Below, piece by piece: positions 13,823-49,475 of a stretch of 64,000 bases of DNA. Positions within the stretch are counted from its first letter, which is position 1; each line of letters starts with the position of its first letter. The stretch lies in the NCBI RefSeq assembly GCF_046105845.1, contig NZ_CP151004.1. The stretch is one strand, 5' to 3'. The notes below the pieces were generated by a model, which was given only the letters and a program-made list of their open reading frames with translations, did no database searches and was not told where the DNA came from. The DNA comes from Escherichia coli. GTDB taxonomy: Bacteria > Pseudomonadota > Gammaproteobacteria > Enterobacterales > Enterobacteriaceae. Position numbers and translations under genes: made by a program.

Positions 13823-15199
13823 TTACTGACTTTGTTCCACCTTCGTATCCAGTAAAATTACATAGCGATTCAGCAACTGATTTAACCGGGTATCTATCTG
13901 CGTCAACAGCGTCGGCGAAACCTCTCCGGTCTGTTTTTGCTCTTCCAGTTGCCGAAGCAGTTCTTCCAGCGGCGGCTCCTTTAACGACTGCCGGATGCCG
14001 TACACCGCCGTTTTTAGTTCCGAGCCGGTCAGATATCTCCCCTTACGCTCATCCAGTGCATCCAGCTGCGCCGACAGGCGCTGTAGCTGGCTTTGCGCCT
14101 GTGCGTAGCCATTCAATGCCTCAGCAGACATGGCGCTCAGCTCCCGCTGCTTACGCCACTGCGCGTTCAGCGCCCTGACCTGAGGATTATCCGGCCACAG
14201 GGCATCAAGCTGGCGTAGCTGGCGATATCCCTGCTCCAGCGGCCAGCGGGCAGGCAATTTGTTTAACTGCTCCAGCTGCATCTGACTTGCCGCAATTGTT
14301 CTGTCCTGAGCCAGCAGCGCCTTATCCTTTACATCCAGCTTTGCCAGTTCGCCGCTCTCCAGCGACTGCGGCAACGGCATGACAGACAGTTGTATTCGCT
14401 GGATTAGCGCGTCCGGCTGATTAAGCTGCGACCAGCCCCATAATCCTGTTCCGCCGAGACAGGCCATCACAACCATTCCGGCCATAAATATCGGCCATGC
14501 CCGCTGCCGGGAGATTTCAGGGGATGGCACGGATGGACTGGCATCCTTATCGTTTTGCTGAGCGGGTCTGGTTGCAAAAACCGGCTGTGGACTTTCTTCT
14601 GACTTTTTCGGTTGCTTCATTTCCTTGCGGGGTAATTCAGGGGGAGTGATAGTGGTTTCCGCTCCCTGTGGTGCCAGCCGCTCCAGACGTAGCGCCGCAT
14701 TACGAAACTGCCCGGCCAGCACATCCAGTTTCGTCATATGCCACAGTTCACACTGTTGCAGCGTGGTTTCGATGGCGGAAAGATGCTGTACACAACGGTA
14801 AATCTGCGGCAGATCCTGATACTGAATATCCAGCGTTCTCAGTGCCTGCTGCATTTTTTCTGTGACCCAGCTGAGCAGTGATATTCTGGAATGTACCTGT
14901 ACCGGCCAGAAGTCGGCCCATCGCTGGAGCAGTATGTCCAGTGAACCGAGTCCGTCTGCCATCCCTGCCAGCCCCTGCCGTCTGGTTATCGCCAGTACGT
15001 AACAGACCAGCGTCTGTAATTCCACGCCATTTTGCCGGAACAGCGCGAGGCTGAGTTTTTCCACCTGACGCCAGTCCACATCCGGTCGGGCCGGGTGAGT
15101 CAGTTTACTCATTTCAGCCTGCAGTTCACCGGATTCCTTATAAGTACAGGGATCGCCGCCCATGACGAACTGGCTGATAAAATTCGCGTTACTTGCCAT
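13823..15199 (-). CDS. tagA: T6SS accessory protein with ImpA-like N-terminal domain (TagA-like)
   Basis: 458 aa; TssA/ImpA-like N-terminus, central hydrophobic segment (AWPIFMAGMVVMACLGGTGLWGW), coiled-coil C-terminus; last gene of the T6SS cluster. Confidence 0.55.
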   Translation of the reverse strand: MASNANFISQFVMGGDPCTYKESGELQAEMSKLTHPARPDVDWRQVEKLSLALFRQNGVELQTLVCYVLAITRRQGLAGMADGLGSLDILLQRWADFWPVQVHSRISLLSWVTEKMQQALRTLDIQYQDLPQIYRCVQHLSAIETTLQQCELWHMTKLDVLAGQFRNAALRLERLAPQGAETTITPPELPRKEMKQPKKSEESPQPVFATRPAQQNDKDASPSVPSPEISRQRAWPIFMAGMVVMACLGGTGLWGWSQLNQPDALIQRIQLSVMPLPQSLESGELAKLDVKDKALLAQDRTIAASQMQLEQLNKLPARWPLEQGYRQLRQLDALWPDNPQVRALNAQWRKQRELSAMSAEALNGYAQAQSQLQRLSAQLDALDERKGRYLTGSELKTAVYGIRQSLKEPPLEELLRQLEEQKQTGEVSPTLLTQIDTRLNQLLNRYVILLDTKVEQSQ

Positions 15200-28448: not shown

Positions 28449-29252
28449 TTACTCGGGTGGTGGTGGGGGATTATTATCAACTATAATTTTTAAATCCTTA
28501 CTCATGTCCTCTTCCACAGATTTTTTTATATCTATTAAAATCTCTTCATTCAGAGCTATCTGAAAATATTTCTCAACATTATAAGCACTTCTGAAAACGG
28601 CCTGATTGTGTTGACTAACCATTGTTTTTGCAGCAGCCAAATGAGCATCACCACTCATAAATGCCGGTTTCCCTTGCGCATTCATATCATGTGTGCTCAT
28701 TCCACCACCAATACCACCTTTGCCGGTCCTACAAAAATGAGACATTTCATGACACAGCGTTGAAACCTGAGAATCAACACCACATAATGGTTTGTCCTTA
28801 AACTTTCCAGCTATAAAAATATGATAATCTTTATCAATAAATTCATTAACTCTGGCAGTGAAATTCCCACATACCGTATTATTAATATAATAGCAAGTTA
28901 ACACTCCATCCTTATCATATCTGAACATTTGATTATGAATTGTTTTAATCCTCTTGATACCATCCTGCATTATTAACAATGCAGTCTGTTTAGTTTCATC
29001 ATCATCTCCTATCAATTCATCACCTTTGGTGCCAAATATTTTATAAAACTCGCTTATCTCTTTTTCCTTCCCCCCCTTATTCCAACCCTCAAGAGAATGT
29101 TCGCGAATCTCAAGAACTTTTTCTTGGGCTTTGTGTGCTCGTAATATCATCTCTTTAAATTTATTAGTAATAACAACTTCAGCGACACAAATCTCTACAG
29201 TAGCTGGAGCTGGAGCTGGCTTGCCGTTTGATATTTTATTTCCCATATACAT
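28449..29252 (-). CDS. Candidate T6SS effector with HExxH metallopeptidase-like motif
   Basis: 267 aa; LCHEMSHF motif; Pro/Ala-rich ends; 7 bp downstream of vgrG copy B; AT-rich. Confidence 0.5.
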   Translation of the reverse strand: MYMGNKISNGKPAPAPATVEICVAEVVITNKFKEMILRAHKAQEKVLEIREHSLEGWNKGGKEKEISEFYKIFGTKGDELIGDDDETKQTALLIMQDGIKRIKTIHNQMFRYDKDGVLTCYYINNTVCGNFTARVNEFIDKDYHIFIAGKFKDKPLCGVDSQVSTLCHEMSHFCRTGKGGIGGGMSTHDMNAQGKPAFMSGDAHLAAAKTMVSQHNQAVFRSAYNVEKYFQIALNEEILIDIKKSVEEDMSKDLKIIVDNNPPPPPE

Positions 29253-42920: not shown

Positions 42921-44465
42921 TCAGGCTTTCGCTTTCGGCATCTGGGAAACCAGTGACAGGTTGATATCCATCCCTTCAATCTGGAAATGCGGCACGGCAA
43001 AGAGTCTGACGCGGAAGAAGCCCGGATTGTCCTCAATATCTTCCACGATAACCTTGCCGTCGCGCAGCGGGTGAGACGCCTGCAGTTCATCACCCGGATC
43101 GGTCATCTCCGTCACCAGTGTGCGGATCCAGGTGTTCAGTTCCAGTTCCAGTACGCGGCGGTCTTTGGTGGTACCGATATTCTCGCGCTGGATGATTTTC
43201 AGGTAATGCGCAATGCGGGACAGCAGGAAGATATAGGGTAAACGGGCGTTAATACGGCTGTTGGCAGTGGCATCAGCGGTATCATACAACGCCGGTTTCT
43301 GGGCAGAGTTTGCCGAGAAGAAGCAGGCGTAATCGCGATTCTTATAATAAGAGAGCGGAATAAAGCCAAGGTTGGCAAATTCAAATTCGCGGGTTTCCGG
43401 GATCATCACTTCGGACGGAATTTTGACCTGATTGCCGGTGCCGAGATCGTAAAGATGGATGGGCAGATCGGTCACTGCGCCACCTGCCTGTGGACCACGG
43501 ATCTGCACACACCAGCCATTATTCACAAAGCTCTTCACCATATTGGCGGCAAAAGCGAACGAGGCGTTTGTCCACAGGTACTTTTCGTGATCCGGACCTT
43601 TGACTTCTTCCACATAGTTAAAGCTGCGTACCGGCACCGTGTCCGGCCCGTACGGCAGACGCCCCAGTACGCGCGGCATCACTAATCCCACATAGCGACT
43701 GTCATCCGTATCGCGGAACGATTTCCATTTAATATATTCTGCGCGGTCAAAGTAGTTGCCGATATCTTTAATCGCGGCGACTTCTTCCATCGAATTTTTA
43801 AGGAAGAATTTCGGCCCGACAGAACCTATAAATGGCATATGGGAAGCGGCAGACACTCTGGAAATATTGCGCAGCAGGGCAATATCCTGCGGGCTGTTAT
43901 CAAATTCATAGCTGGAAATTAATGAGGCAACAGGTTCGCCACCCGGCGTATCGTACTCCTGAATGTATGTATGACGATATAAACCGCTCTGAATGATTTC
44001 CGGGGAGTCGTCGAAATCCTGACGCAGATGCTCTTTGCTGATATCCAGCAATTCAATTCTGACATTTTTGCGAAAATCAGTGCGCTGTACGACGAACCAT
44101 GTGCCGCGCCACAGCGACTCGACTTTCTGGAATTCAGGATGGTGCATTACCGCATCAAGCTGCTTACTGATTTTCTGATCCAAATCGTCGATATGAAAAT
44201 CCAGCAGGCTCTTGTCGAGCTTGACCACGTTCTCGCCTGATTTCGCCAGACAGGAAAGCAGAACGTGAATCGCCGCTGTCACGCGCTCATCGGGTGAGGC
44301 ATCCGCCAGTGTTTCGCTGTTTTGCCATAAATCTATTTCCTGAATGGAAGACACCGGGGTTAAATTAATTTTATCAAACAGGGACTGATAAACGCCGCCG
44401 GACTCAGTGGTGGTCAGTGTTGCAGTTTCAGAGGTGGCATGTTCTTGTTGTACAGACATCAGCAT
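42921..44465 (-). CDS. tssC: T6SS contractile sheath large subunit TssC (VipB)
   Basis: About 512 aa; TssC-like; downstream of tssB. Confidence 0.9.
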   Translation of the reverse strand: MLMSVQQEHATSETATLTTTESGGVYQSLFDKINLTPVSSIQEIDLWQNSETLADASPDERVTAAIHVLLSCLAKSGENVVKLDKSLLDFHIDDLDQKISKQLDAVMHHPEFQKVESLWRGTWFVVQRTDFRKNVRIELLDISKEHLRQDFDDSPEIIQSGLYRHTYIQEYDTPGGEPVASLISSYEFDNSPQDIALLRNISRVSAASHMPFIGSVGPKFFLKNSMEEVAAIKDIGNYFDRAEYIKWKSFRDTDDSRYVGLVMPRVLGRLPYGPDTVPVRSFNYVEEVKGPDHEKYLWTNASFAFAANMVKSFVNNGWCVQIRGPQAGGAVTDLPIHLYDLGTGNQVKIPSEVMIPETREFEFANLGFIPLSYYKNRDYACFFSANSAQKPALYDTADATANSRINARLPYIFLLSRIAHYLKIIQRENIGTTKDRRVLELELNTWIRTLVTEMTDPGDELQASHPLRDGKVIVEDIEDNPGFFRVRLFAVPHFQIEGMDINLSLVSQMPKAKA

Positions 44466-44517
44466 TTCCTTTTCAGTGATCCTTTCTTCTCCGGTTTAAC
44501 CTGAATATCACTTCGGG

Positions 44518-45018
44518 TTAAACGTTCTCCTGCGGCGCAATTTTCGCCAGTTCATCACGCAGTTCTGAACTGAGCGTTGGGTCTTTCAGGATATTTTCCA
44601 GTTCACGGCGAAACGTTGCGTTATCCAGCAGATTGGATTTGAGGTCACGTAATAAATTGCGCATAGCGAGTAATACACGAAGCTGTGGGATATTTTTTGC
44701 TACCTGTTCGGGTTCAAAATCTTTCAGGCTTTTAAATTCAAGCGCGATATTTTGTTCATTACCGCTTCCGCTTAGTGTGTCTTCTACTGTTAAATTAACC
44801 GCAGGCGAAAACTCAGCCATGACACTGTTGAAGTTGTTTTTATTGATATCAATCTTGTCCCGTTCGGACAGCGGACGTTGCTCTTTTCCGTTACTGTAAT
44901 CGCCAACAGCAAGAAGCTTGAGGGGGAGTTCAACTTTCTTTTTAGCATTGCCTGTATGCAGGTCAAGCTTGATATTTACACGAGCGGCGGGAACTTCATT
45001 CTGGAAACTGTCGGCCAT
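44518..45018 (-). CDS. tssB: T6SS contractile sheath small subunit TssB (VipA)
   Basis: About 166 aa from MADSFQNEVPAARVNIKLDL; first gene of the T6SS operon. Confidence 0.9.
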   Translation of the reverse strand: MADSFQNEVPAARVNIKLDLHTGNAKKKVELPLKLLAVGDYSNGKEQRPLSERDKIDINKNNFNSVMAEFSPAVNLTVEDTLSGSGNEQNIALEFKSLKDFEPEQVAKNIPQLRVLLAMRNLLRDLKSNLLDNATFRRELENILKDPTLSSELRDELAKIAPQENV

Positions 45019-45045
45019 ATCCTTTTCCTCATCATCCACTTTCAT

Positions 45046-45657
45046 CAGGAGTGCGAGATAATCACGCGTGTGACTATCCCATAAGGATTATGACTATATA
45101 AAGATAAAAAACAAGAACAAATATAGAGACAGAAATATCATTTATAATTGCTGTGAATAATTATACGTCTATCTCGAAATTATATTATTTGAGAACATCA
45201 TCCCATTTTTAGGCGTTTTAGCTGTTAAGCAGACGGTTAAACCTATACATGTGTATACATGCATGAAAATACTGAAAAACAACAAGATCCACATCACAAA
45301 AATTTATTTTTCAGAATGACGGAATTCATGTTTTTTTCGCAAATTATTCACCATGCAAATATTTAATTTTTTTCATGCTTAATAAAATATGATGTTTACT
45401 CATATGCCAACTATGCTACCTGTTGACGCCACACACCAATACACAAAACAAATGCAACAATCACAAACCATAAAAATAAAATATGATTTAGCTATAGTTA
45501 TCAACAAAATAACATCACCACCATTTATAATTTTACTATTGATAAAAAATAGAAACTACGATAAATAATAAAGCATTACTTACCAATCATTCTTTTAAAT
45601 GATTCTGGAATGCAGTCTCCACTGCATAATTGGGCTGTGTTTTTTAAGGAGCAAGTA
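45046..45657. promoter_or_regulatory. About 600 bp AT-rich divergent intergenic region: T6SS (tssB) promoter region and promoter of the 313-aa gene
   Basis: Strongly AT-rich; contains a GATC site (around 45287-45290) and AT-rich Fur-box-like stretches; in the EAEC sci-1 cluster Fur/Dam control is established. Confidence 0.4.
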
Positions 45658-46599
45658 ATGCATACCATTCCTTATTATAGCAATAACACCTCTATGCCTG
45701 TCTGGGTTACTGTTAGCGAAGCAACTGATATTATCAATAAGTATACTAACAGCCATATTAAAGATTGTGACTTATGGCGTTATGCACTTTATGGTCACTT
45801 ACCTCTTTCAATTTATTTCCAGTCACAAATAAAGCTTAGAAAAATTTGCCTGAGCGGCGATGAAATCATGCTGGATAACATCGAAGAAAGCATTATTGAG
45901 AAGATAGCTCAGTTAAGTGATACGTGCATATACAATGGGAAAAATAAAATAATAAAGACAGAAGGTGACTATATTTCCCCAGAGCATCATATTATTGATA
46001 CACCATTAATTGGTCATGAATATATTGTATTACAAAGATTACTTGCTCACTCATTAAAAATACCAAAACCTATTACAGGACAGTATAATTCTCATTATGG
46101 TGTTGTCGTCCGTGAAAATGGAATAATTTATCAGGTCTTCGAATCAACTACACTGGAAAACAGAATAACCCAGCGCCTTCGCCATCTTTCAATCCCCGTT
46201 GCAACATACTTTTACGAATCAACAAAATCCCAGGATCTCAAACAGGCAGGAACCCGGTATTTCCCGGTTTATCATTTTCCTGACGATGCCTGGTTCGTTA
46301 TCAAACGCACTGCTCTTGAGCAATTCATAAATACTTTTCTCCCTCCCACTCATAAAAATACCCCTAAAAATGGAACCCGCATTTCTACACCGCTATCACG
46401 ATTTCTCTGGCTAGCGTGTAAGCACAATCATGATATTAGCGCACTGATGGGGCACCCCTACAAACTCCTCTCCGTGTTCGAAGAATGGGCCCGCTCCGAC
46501 GGTATCACTGAACGACTAAATGGAGATACGCTGAAAACCGCACTGGAACGCGGTTCTCCGGTTTTAGCCTACCGTAACTCCGAATTAATGAAATCCTAA
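45658..46599 (+). CDS. Hypothetical protein (island cargo, no family recognised)
   Basis: Likely start MHTIPYYSNN (ggagcaagta Shine-Dalgarno-like sequence upstream); about 313 aa; AT-rich 5' two-thirds. Confidence 0.5.
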   Translation: MHTIPYYSNNTSMPVWVTVSEATDIINKYTNSHIKDCDLWRYALYGHLPLSIYFQSQIKLRKICLSGDEIMLDNIEESIIEKIAQLSDTCIYNGKNKIIKTEGDYISPEHHIIDTPLIGHEYIVLQRLLAHSLKIPKPITGQYNSHYGVVVRENGIIYQVFESTTLENRITQRLRHLSIPVATYFYESTKSQDLKQAGTRYFPVYHFPDDAWFVIKRTALEQFINTFLPPTHKNTPKNGTRISTPLSRFLWLACKHNHDISALMGHPYKLLSVFEEWARSDGITERLNGDTLKTALERGSPVLAYRNSELMKS

Positions 46600-46699: not shown

Positions 46700-46885
46700 A
46701 TGACGTCACAACGATTTCTGCGGCTGGCACAGGTTATGGATAAAACCGGACTGAAACGCTCACAGGTCTATGCTTATATGAAAACAGGGGATTTCCCAAA
46801 ATCCGTCAAAATTGGCCCGTCCAGCGTAGCATGGCTGGAATCGGAAATTGACGAATGGATCAATACAAAAATAAATAACCGCTAA
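46700..46885 (+). CDS. alpA: AlpA-family phage/island transcriptional regulator (excisionase-like)
   Basis: 61 aa MTSQRFLRLAQVMDKTGLKRSQVYAYMKTGDFPKSVKIGPSSVAWLESEIDEWI, AlpA-like helix-turn-helix. Confidence 0.8.
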   Translation: MTSQRFLRLAQVMDKTGLKRSQVYAYMKTGDFPKSVKIGPSSVAWLESEIDEWINTKINNR

Positions 46886-46924
46886 TGTAGTATTCTCATT
46901 ATTAGTTTGTTTGAGGTCATTAAT

Positions 46925-47719
46925 ATGAACGATGATCACGGTATTCTTATGCCTGTCGCACTAAATCAGCTACGGGCATTTGATTTAAATCCACGCCTTA
47001 CCAAAAATCCAGAATATGATGAAATTAAAGAATCGATTCGCAACCGCGGGCTGGATTATCCGCCACAAATAACACAACGTCCGGGAGAATCTTTTTATAT
47101 TATTGCCAATGGAGGTAATACCCGGCTGGCAATACTCAACGAGTTATGGCTGGAAACTCACGATAAAAAATACTGGAATATTGTCTGTCATTTCTGGAAG
47201 TGGCATACAGACTGGAGCATTGAAGAAGGTAATTTACACTGCCTGCTTGGTCATCTCGTAGAAAATGATAAACGCGGTTCACTGACATTTATTGAACGGG
47301 CATTAGGGGTTCAAAGTGCAATAAACCTGTATCAAAGTATCCGGGGAAGCTCACAAAGAGATCTGGTACAAATGCTCTGTCAGGCGGGATATCCAGTATC
47401 CACCACGAAACTAAGTATTATGTCCGCGACTATCACATTTCTTTTACCCTATATTCCGGAAGCACTTTACGGTGGTCTGTCGAGACGTATTATCGATAAA
47501 TTGCTGGCACTTCGTTCCAATACGCTAAAATTCTGGGACAACTTCTGCCAGACGTTGCCTCCCGAAAAGGAACAGCAACTCCCTCTATTTGACGATATTT
47601 TTGCTATGGCCCTGACTCCCTTTAATGAACCGATGACAGGTTTTTCACTGGAGCATATTCAGGATGAGCTGACAGGGATTATCAGCAAGACACTTAATGT
47701 GGACTCTGCCCAGCGATAA
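46925..47719 (+). CDS. ParB/Srx-like N-terminal-domain protein (island-associated)
   Basis: Start MNDDHGIL after a gaggt Shine-Dalgarno; the motif YIIANGGNTRLAIL resembles the ParB N-terminal box; assignment tentative. Confidence 0.45.
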   Translation: MNDDHGILMPVALNQLRAFDLNPRLTKNPEYDEIKESIRNRGLDYPPQITQRPGESFYIIANGGNTRLAILNELWLETHDKKYWNIVCHFWKWHTDWSIEEGNLHCLLGHLVENDKRGSLTFIERALGVQSAINLYQSIRGSSQRDLVQMLCQAGYPVSTTKLSIMSATITFLLPYIPEALYGGLSRRIIDKLLALRSNTLKFWDNFCQTLPPEKEQQLPLFDDIFAMALTPFNEPMTGFSLEHIQDELTGIISKTLNVDSAQR

Positions 47720-47916
47720 CGGGATGGCCAGATTTGCGCCGGTGATATATTCAATGCCTCCGCAATCAACCGCTCACCTTTCGGCCAGTGGCTCCTGAGT
47801 GCATTTGCCAGCGTACCGGAGGCCAGCCCGGCTTTGCGGGAAACCGCTGCCAGCGACGTTCCCTGTTTTTTCAGTGCCGCGATAATATCTGCGGGGTGCC
47901 AGTCCTGCTGCATCAT
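47659..47916 (-). CDS. Ner/Nlp-family small DNA-binding protein
   Basis: From MMQQDWHPADIIAALKKQGTSLAAVSRKAGLASGTLANAL...; Ner-like helix-turn-helix; start overlaps the integrase stop. Confidence 0.55.
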   Translation of the reverse strand: MMQQDWHPADIIAALKKQGTSLAAVSRKAGLASGTLANALRSHWPKGERLIAEALNISPAQIWPSRYRWAESTLSVLLIIPVSSS

Positions 47917-49137
47917 ACTGCCCTCCCACAAACCAGCCGTTCGGACGGGATACCACATACACGCTGGCTCCACCACGCCATCACGTCGGTTCTCTGCTCA
48001 AGATAGGTCGAGCGGTTATAAGCGGCGCGCGTCTGATTAGTATCCGCATGAGCCAGTACAGCTTCTATCACATCAGGGGAAAATCCGGCCTCATTCAGCG
48101 TGGTGCTACCCAGCGCCCGGAAACCATGTGACACCAGCTCCCCGCAATACCCCATACGCCGTAGTGCCTTATTGACCGTTTCGCTATTCATTGGTTGCGA
48201 GGGCTTAACCCGACCCGGAAACAGGAACGGCGAGTGTCCACTTATCGGTTTAAGTTGCTCCAGTATCCACAGCATTTCATCAGTCAGGGGCACCAGATGC
48301 TCACGGCGTTTTTTCATACGCTCAGCCGGAATAGTCCATAGCTTTTTCTCCGTATCAATCTCACGCCACATGGTGCCTGACGCTTCTCCGGGGCGCACCA
48401 GCGTCAGCAACTGCCACTTAATCAGATAACGAGTCATCAGCGATAGATTGGTGGTTTCAATCCGCTGTACCAGCTCCGGCAGGCGTTCCGGGCGGATAGA
48501 CGCCATATGCTGTTTTTTCGGCTTCTCAAAGACCTTACCGATGGTCGAGGCTGGATTCGCATCAAGCAGGCCGGAATTGACAGCAAATACCATCACTTCG
48601 TTGATACGCTGGGTTAGACGACGCAGGGTTTCCAGCGCACCTCGTGCCCGGACCGGCTCAAGGGCGGCAATCAGAGTATGTGCTTTCAATTCAGCTACCG
48701 GCATCTGTCCGATTGACGGAAGAACATCCCGTTCCATCGAACGCCAGATATCATCTGCATGCACTTCTGAAATGCCACTGGTCTTTTTAATAGCAAACCA
48801 TCTTGTCGCCACATTGATAAACAGGCTGTCGATTGCTTTCTTTTCCTGTTCTGCGGCTTCCTGCTCCAGCTTTTTCGGATCTACACCCTGAGCCAGCAGA
48901 CCAAGATATTCATCATGTACTGCGGGCAGCAGCAAGAGTTACAGCAGGATAATAACCCAGCGTGATATTGGTACGGGCAGTGGAGTTTGGACGCTGGTAA
49001 CGAAAACGCCAGATTTTCTTCCCGGAAGTACGAACAGAAAGCGTCAGACCATGCCCGTCAGGCAGGTCGTAATCTTTATCGGCGGGTTTTGCTTTTTGTA
49101 CTGCGGCAGCAGTCAGCAGGCGGCGGGTAATGGTCAT
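47913..49137 (-). pseudogene. int: P4-type tyrosine integrase, interrupted by a frameshift
   Basis: N-terminal 74-aa ORF (48913..49137, arm-binding-like domain) and C-terminal 340-aa ORF (47913..48935, catalytic domain) lie in different frames with a junction near 48915-48935. Confidence 0.8.
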
Positions 49138-49320
49138 GATTTACTCCTCAGTTATCGTCAATGTTAAGCGACGAGGCTGACGTAATATCCTGTTCCACCA
49201 CCACTTTTTCAGCCATAAACTCAGAAATGGCCTACGAAATTTGTCCTCTGGTCGCATAGGCCATTTCATGGGCCATTTTGCACCGGATACAGGAGTATCC
49301 AGCAGGACAAATTCAGACGA

Positions 49321-49353
49321 AAAAAAACCGTATCACCTTGATAGCGATACGGT
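49321..49353 (-). terminator. Rho-independent terminator downstream of aspV
   Basis: On the minus strand accgtatc...gatacggt hairpin followed by ttttttt. Confidence 0.55.
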
Positions 49354-49398
49354 TTTCTTACTTCACAGGATGTATAAAAACACCCTGAAATTTGTAAG

Positions 49399-49475
49399 TG
49401 GCGGAACGGACGGGACTCGAACCCGCGACCCCCTGCGTGACAGGCAGGTATTCTAACCGACTGAACTACCGCTCC
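49399..49475 (-). tRNA. aspV: tRNA-Asp (GUC)
   Basis: Reverse complement reads GGAGCGGTAGTTCAGTCGGTTAGAATACCTGCCTGTCACGCAGGGGGTCGCGGGTTCGAGTCCCGTCCGTTCCGCCA. Confidence 0.97.

Follow-up and report, generated by a model that had tools for sequence, protein, structure and literature searches.

The sci1 cluster of enteroaggregative Escherichia coli (EAEC) provides the textbook case of a heritable ON/OFF switch of a type VI secretion system (T6SS), operated by Fur and Dam, and it is tempting to extend this switch to every sci1-like cluster. Is it also present in the T6SS island analyzed here, where a long AT-rich gap separates tssB from a divergent gene encoding a protein of 313 amino acids (aa)? 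The island lies in a 64,000-nt stretch of E. coli DNA (contig NZ_CP151004.1), referred to as the window, and a sequence-only reading had suggested that the logic of an overlapping Fur box and Dam site may apply to this gap. Our analysis makes it likely that two acquired modules of the aspV locus meet in this gap and that it serves as their divergent promoter and leader region, AT-rich, composite and probably prone to H-NS, and not as a switch.

The gap and its solitary GATC

The gap covers 45019..45657 (639 bp, 29.9% G+C), from the tssB start codon at 45018 to the ATG of the 313-aa gene at 45658. Both edges are start codons fixed by the RefSeq annotation of relatives and by conserved start contexts. 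The tssB gene (166 aa, 44518..45018, minus strand) begins at ATG 45018 with MADSFQNE, which is the start in RefSeq relatives and is parallel to MSSSFQNE of EAEC TssB. The in-frame ATG at 45045, taken before as the upstream boundary of tssB, is missing in Salmonella and metV-type relatives; with the start at 45018, the gap therefore measures 639 bp. On the other side, ATG 45658 has a strong AAGGAG and is the same start in all 308-aa homologues. The non-coding stretch of about 600 bp described previously is thus real, and it is indeed the only long one in the island, since the runner-up gaps in the open reading frame (ORF) table have 261 bp (integrase to tRNA-Asp) and 190 bp (tssH to hcp). Its G+C content is 29.6% for 45046-45657 and 29.9% for the whole gap, against 51.7% for the 64-kb window. 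Low G+C continues past the gap to about 46100, and the gap together with the first ~450 bp of the 313-aa gene forms a tract of ~1.1 kb with ~70% A+T. The extreme AT-richness claimed for the gap is hence confirmed but not unique, because the coding stretches at 18.95-19.3 kb, 27.35-28.9 kb and 32.0-32.3 kb of the island are equally AT-rich.

One GATC is present in the gap, compared with 1.6 expected from base composition. It is located at 45286..45289, one position from the 45287-45290 given earlier, and lies 271 nt upstream of the tssB ATG; the next GATC is at 46234, and none is found between 44500 and 45285. To score Fur boxes, a matrix was built from 14 K-12 promoter regions listed by Chen et al. 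2007 as footprinted or gel-shifted. Its consensus is GATAATGATAATCATTATC, and leave-one-out scores of the true K-12 sites range from 8.5 to 23 bits. All sixteen 19-mers containing the GATC match the consensus at 9 of 19 positions at most, and the best of them scores -4.1 bits, so the GATC does not stand among Fur-box-like sequence as had been stated. The best Fur-like site of the gap (45080-45098) contains no GATC. Elsewhere in the island only two Fur-like 19-mers contain a GATC, at 14812 and 29652, both in coding sequence.

The conservation pattern of the site was examined in related copies of the gap. The GATC is found at -271 in three near-identical E. coli copies and is absent from two others (L006 and L007), while the remaining copies have theirs at -232 (L014), at -103 (four Salmonella copies), or at -437 and -7 (L111). 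The corresponding column in diverged copies reads GGTC or TATC or is unalignable, with GGTC in the closest diverged E. coli lineage, which is 88% identical. As its presence and position differ between lineages, the GATC at 45286 is a lineage-specific chance occurrence. In the four Salmonella copies (L009, L107, L108 and L110) the GATC ~103 nt upstream of tssB falls inside the aligned -35/-10-like spacer (TTGCATTTTGATCTGATATCACGATAGT) and is lost in the variant L111. A CRP-like half-site (TGTGA) beside the GATC of the window, noticed by eye, was rejected; its right half is poor and its left half is lost in Entomohabitans.

A switch of the sci1 type would work through Fur bound to a GATC-containing box, which blocks Dam, and through methylation, which lowers the affinity of Fur, resulting in heritable ON and OFF states of the T6SS. 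The promoter Psci1 (Brunet et al. 2011, PMC3145626; PMC13262931) has three GATC sites within 53 nt around its -10 and -35 elements, and the fur1 box contains one of the three. This box, TATAATGATCAAAATTAAA, covers the -10 of Psci1 in the EAEC 042 sequence according to the published coordinates. The two loci share several features. Both regions are upstream of tssB in the order tssB-tssC-tssK-tssL-tagL-hcp-tssH, both gaps are AT-rich with ~500-640 bp, and both have a weak Fur-like 19-mer over a -10-like hexamer ~80 nt before the ATG. T6SS are also commonly Fur-regulated, and one GATC does exist here. However, the identity of the proteins to their sci1 counterparts is limited to 66-79% (TssB 66%, TssC 79%), and the gap has no sequence similarity to Psci1: blastn (word size 9, E up to 0.01) against the EAEC 042 sci1 locus gave no match. 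The switch at Psci1 depends on site G1, which lies in box F1 at the -10, and on G2 and G3 within 53 nt, whereas the lone GATC of the 639-bp gap is at -271, outside the Fur-like sites and unconserved. A switch of this type is therefore extremely improbable at this locus and, as judged from sequence, the gap is not one.

Modules on either side of the seam

Three parts of the gap were delimited by sliding identity and blastn, with diverged copies recovered through homologues of the 313-aa protein and TssB. The part next to tssB (45019..45324, minus strand) is linked to the T6SS. Entomohabitans teleogrylli has an 83% homologous counterpart of it in front of a tssB of 99% identity, in a locus with different neighbours and no adjacent 313-aa gene. 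When the E. coli and Entomohabitans copies are compared, the first 130-170 bp of this module equal the genes in conservation. The middle part (45325..45534) can be aligned only among E. coli copies, with 81-86% identity, contains no conserved small ORF and is probably unconstrained filler. The third part (45535..45657, plus strand) belongs to the 313-aa gene and is conserved upstream of its homologues in Salmonella and others, including loci where the left neighbour is yafT or vgrG instead of tssB.

The module of the 313-aa gene would carry the promoter and leader of the 313-aa and alpA genes, which form one end of a decayed integrative element of the PFGI-1 type. A promoter-like block is composed of TTGATA (45539-45544) followed by TAAATA (45562-45567) or AATAAT (45564-45569). 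The leader contains a perfect 7-4-7 inverted repeat, ATGCAGT-CTCC-ACTGCAT (45610-45627), and the Shine-Dalgarno sequence AAGGAG (45646-45651). The TTGATA block, the repeat and the Shine-Dalgarno sequence, all on the plus strand, are kept upstream of all 308-aa homologues. The Salmonella version of the repeat is ATGCGGT-AGAT-ACTGCAT, with one G.U-compatible change. The repeat of the window also contains the upstream in-frame ATG of a mechanically called ORF of 329 aa.

The arrangement of tssB facing a 308-aa gene was found in a second E. coli lineage, with a gap 88% identical to that of the window, and in several Salmonella enterica contigs, where the genes are ~77-85% and the gap 42-66% identical. 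The gap has ~620 bp in both. Of 5426 complete E. coli genomes, only two have the window's own version, at 98.5-98.8% identity, and the sensitive search mode added no others. Searches of a plasmid collection in distant mode and of metagenomes with two conserved blocks as anchors gave no match. A copy of the tRNA-Asp 3' end that could represent attR was sought in this gap and in those of the relatives, and none was found; the seam between the modules is thus not a recognisable att site. An Rfam scan of 44800-45900 with E up to 1 returned zero matches, no terminator was found in a terminator scan of the region, and the search for direct and inverted repeats in the gap gave just short AT-rich chance pairs. 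ORFs of 59, 42, 35 and 35 aa were considered as coding content and rejected, as none survives intact and under constraint in Salmonella or in the E. coli lineage of 88% identity.

These results bear on another account of the gap, by which recombination of the T6SS cluster with the integrative element left mostly inert DNA at the junction, with only a minimal promoter and a ribosome-binding site. The freely drifting, lineage-specific middle of 210 bp, the lack of any att repeat, RNA family or conserved ORF, and the absence of enrichment for promoter-like sites agree with it. On the other hand, the E. coli and Salmonella copies have discrete blocks in common, among them the palindrome, the -35/-10-like pair and the Shine-Dalgarno sequence, in sequence that has otherwise fallen to 42-56% identity, and the gap length is maintained in three lineages. 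We consider inert junction DNA very unlikely on this basis, and prefer a composite region with probable control elements in the modules at both ends.

Candidate promoters, a palindrome and probable silencing

The module next to tssB is probably part of a T6SS operon related to PAI-metV and SPI-20 with sci1-like gene order. It most likely carries a sigma-70 promoter of tssB, a leader of ~62 nt with a stem-loop or palindrome, and a Shine-Dalgarno sequence. The candidate promoter (45087..45114, minus strand) consists of a -35 element TTGTTT (45114->45109), a 16-nt spacer and a -10 element CATAAT (45092->45087), and aligns with TTGCAT-16-GATAGT in Salmonella. Transcription would then start near 45080, and the leader would open with the stem-loop. 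Several observations weigh against this assignment. A scan for the sigma-70 consensus found nothing on the tssB strand, the candidate pair being below threshold; its -35 matches only three of six consensus positions; and 44900-45800 has a single consensus hexamer pair, compared with 4.4 +/- 1.8 in shuffles. The Salmonella gap is likewise poor in such pairs (2 vs 4.7 +/- 2.3). A depletion of this kind is unusual for AT-rich acquired DNA, where spurious promoters normally abound.

The most interesting element of the gap is a conserved sequence on the tssB sense strand (45055..45080, minus strand), immediately downstream of the candidate -10, which can be read as a palindrome or as an RNA stem-loop. 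Its core, 45077->45058, has an 8-4-8 structure, ATAGTCAC-ACGC-GTGATTAT, extended to 11 pairs in the window version; the Salmonella version is ATAGTTAC-ATGC-GTGACTAT. All three lineages, E. coli, Entomohabitans and Salmonella, retain the element although its flanks diverge. A search that covered the metV-type leader, sci1 and the upstream regions of 80 other tssB loci found it nowhere outside this lineage. The central four bases vary (ACGC, ATGC, ATAC, GTGA), and the eight pairs of the stem are paired in 48 of 48 sequence-pair cells. Three stem pairs vary on one side each, as G-C/G.U, C-G/U.G and A-U/G.U. All of these changes are transitions, and each preserves a G.U pair on the tssB sense strand where the opposite strand would have A.C. 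The sense RNA of the 65-nt leader folds with -19.8 kcal/mol (z -2.8, 1 of 200 shuffles as stable), compared with -11.4 kcal/mol (z -1.05) for the antisense strand. Weighing against a hairpin, the covariation amounts to three one-sided changes with no double compensatory change, and the shuffle control was uninformative. In L009, the only Salmonella copy scanned, a terminator-like hairpin followed by a T run was found in the conserved block ACGCGAATGATATTCGTGT.

Stabilising stem-loops at the 5' end occur on enterobacterial mRNAs, as in ompA-type leaders. The tssB element resembles these in that a stable hairpin is predicted at or near the putative 5' end of the mRNA and its pairing is kept across lineages, but it has no sequence relationship to them and could equally be a DNA operator.

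As an operator, the palindrome would be bound by a dimeric regulator, for which the 313-aa protein, AlpA and the HTH_35 protein of the neighbouring element are candidates. Conserved half-sites around a variable central 4 bp are what would be seen for a spacer without protein contact, and the position relative to the candidate -10 is typical for a repressor. The preservation of G.U pairing on the tssB sense strand only, however, favours RNA. Moreover, the palindrome is also present in Entomohabitans without an adjacent 313-aa gene, the 313-aa family is widespread at element ends without T6SS, and the 80 other tssB loci are devoid of the palindrome. An operator function is thus doubtful. Repression by Fur without Dam was also considered. 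Here Fur would occupy the best Fur-like 19-mer of the gap, TATAGTCATAATCCTTATG (45080..45098, minus strand), together with an overlapping site of 4.1 bits 6 bp upstream, and would block RNA polymerase across the -10 under iron-replete conditions. The 19-mer matches the consensus at 14 of 19 positions with 9.5 bits, above the 13 of 19 and 6.7 bits of the validated sci1 fur1 box on the same matrix. It overlaps the candidate -10 of tssB at -80 from the ATG, near the -86 of fur1, and a further match of 6.9 bits at -107 overlaps the candidate -35. A spacing of 6 bp has been described for Fur dimers (PMC2189734), and no E. coli or Entomohabitans copy differs in the 19-mer.

Statistically, however, these matches do not stand out from AT-rich background. 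The 9.5 bits of the 19-mer lie at the low end of the scores of true sites and are not above chance: dinucleotide-preserving shuffles reach this score in 56% of cases for the gap, where 92% reach 6.7 bits, and in 14% for the proximal 150 bp. Four Fur-like sites of at least 4 bits were observed in the gap, compared with 7.3 +/- 2.9 in shuffles. The position is not kept in the Salmonella relatives, where no match of at least 2.5 bits begins at the aligned column, the nearest lies 10 columns downstream with 2.7 bits, and the best matches (11.8-12.1 bits) are at -185 to -198, ~100 nt further upstream. The identity among the E. coli copies is uninformative because the flanking genes are equally identical. 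The Fur-matrix scan suggested earlier as a check therefore returned one site of 9.5 bits, with no enrichment and none at the GATC, and the low score of the validated fur1 box shows that such scans have little power in AT-rich DNA. Repression by Fur alone is possible but unlikely. The strongest Fur-matrix matches of the window are found elsewhere, as a 6-bp-spaced pair at 28817-28841, AAATATGATAATCTTTATC (15.6 bits) and GATAATCTTTATCAATAAA (11.4 bits), inside the AT-rich ORF 28449-29252 downstream of a vgrG and without a GATC. This pair might be an internal iron-responsive promoter or chance.

In the composite promoter region that we favour, H-NS-type xenogeneic silencing is most likely the global control, because the tract of ~1.1 kb is so rich in A+T, and binding of H-NS to the gap is likely. 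The tract resembles an H-NS target in being long, far more AT-rich than the genome, and part of acquired DNA, as denoted by the tRNA-linked island, the integrase and the presence in so few genomes. Weighing against this, the H-NS nucleation motif, a 10-bp element with the consensus TCGATAAATT, reportedly from Lang et al. 2007, has one match of 8/10 (45558), compared with 2.0 +/- 1.4 in shuffles. Silencing by H-NS of T6SS clusters in AT-rich acquired DNA is described as established for Salmonella SPI-6 and others in a review (PMC10482370). SPI-6 (Brunet et al. 2015, cited in PMC10482370) is similarly a horizontally acquired island at aspV that encodes a T6SS, and its promoter region is likewise AT-rich, well below genome G+C. 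It differs in belonging to T6SS group A, whereas the present cluster groups with PAI-metV, SPI-20 and SPI-21, and in that its promoter is H-NS-silenced, while silencing of our gap is predicted from composition and the nucleation motif is not enriched. The description of the gap as an AT-rich control region of the kind that H-NS silences is upheld by composition and context.

The integrative element and a second control region

The window covers the surroundings of aspV in a chromosome of the E. coli type. On the left, the core genes fadE, ivy and yafV end near 13.2 kb, and to the right of the aspV tRNA are dnaQ, rnhA, gloB and mltD, followed by an rrn operon. The T6SS cluster is on the minus strand and runs as tssB, tssC, tssK, tssL, an OmpA-family gene, hcp, tssH and onward. 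To its right are 3.9 kb of the remnant of an integrative element, starting with the 313-aa gene (45658..46599, plus strand), and its remaining part spans 46700..49475. This part comprises alpA (46700-46885), a truncated parB of the PFGI-1 type (46907-47719; 270 aa, compared with ~480 aa in the Salmonella relatives), an HTH_35 gene (47659-47976, minus strand), a P4-type integrase (47913-49137, minus strand) and tRNA-Asp aspV (49399-49475, minus strand). The integrase, an intact gene of 408 aa in L006, is here divided between two overlapping ORFs (47913-48935 and 48913-49137). The element beside aspV is decayed. The two RefSeq genomes with this island have ISEc31 in place of the integrase, and their 313-aa gene is annotated with only 161 aa.

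A total of 396 homologues of the 313-aa protein were found in islands of Enterobacterales, typically followed by alpA and a parB of the type found in integrative and conjugative elements. The protein has no family assignment, as no family match was obtained in Pfam, NCBIfam or PHROG. Its confident AlphaFold model (predicted local distance difference test, pLDDT, 84.5) gave no match as a whole in a Foldseek search of the PDB, only weak resemblances to excisionase (Xis)- and MerR-like winged helices. In several Salmonella-like contigs (L011/L012, L013 and L105), the element end with the 308-aa gene and alpA abuts yafT or vgrG of a different T6SS arrangement, which indicates that the element repeatedly lands beside T6SS islands at aspV. 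No att repeat derived from the tRNA was found at the seams of these contigs. Further inside the island, two ORFs of vgrG size (833 and 829 aa, ~29259-31760 and 33296-35785) have short stretches of exact identity to each other, always 4034 bp apart (such as 30241/34275 and 31472/35506). This pattern suggests a duplicated module of vgrG plus cargo; the small ORFs after each copy have no Pfam match.

PAI-metV was grouped with the Salmonella pathogenicity islands SPI-20 and SPI-21, of which SPI-20 is near aspV (Blondel et al. 2009, PMC2907695). The genes tssB and tssC are 96-100% identical in nucleotide sequence to those of the PAI-metV-type cluster (window 42921-45042 against the E. coli metV loci L003 and L004), and both metV-type loci examined adjoin the metZWV tRNA genes. 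This tssB is present in 1340 of the 5426 genomes, and in all but two aspV-type genomes the match ends at 45042. The breakpoint is abrupt, 24 nt upstream of the tssB ATG; the Shine-Dalgarno and leader segment 45019..45042 (minus strand) is common to both versions. The upstream region of the PAI-metV T6SS of ExPEC-type E. coli (CFT073 type) is also AT-rich, ~630 bp long and beside a tRNA locus, but apart from these last 24 nt it is unrelated to the gap, lacks the palindrome or hairpin, and has the metZWV tRNA genes as neighbour instead of a gene of an integrative element. The two versions differ greatly in frequency, with ~1338 of 5426 genomes for that of PAI-metV and two for the present one.

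Apart from this control-region swap and the leader palindrome or hairpin, the gap is an ordinary AT-rich island promoter. The same T6SS operon stands under two unrelated control regions in E. coli, and it is conceivable that the 8-4-8 element of the rare version, as an mRNA-stabilising hairpin or as the operator of a regulator encoded by the element such as the 313-aa protein or AlpA, couples T6SS firing to the state of the integrative element and not to iron. We regard such a coupling as highly speculative and improbable.

The locus shows that a Fur-Dam switch does not follow from gene order and AT-richness. The swap itself, with near-identical structural genes and a breakpoint at -24, is a natural exchange of promoters and provides a ready comparison of T6SS regulation by the cluster with regulation by the insertion context.

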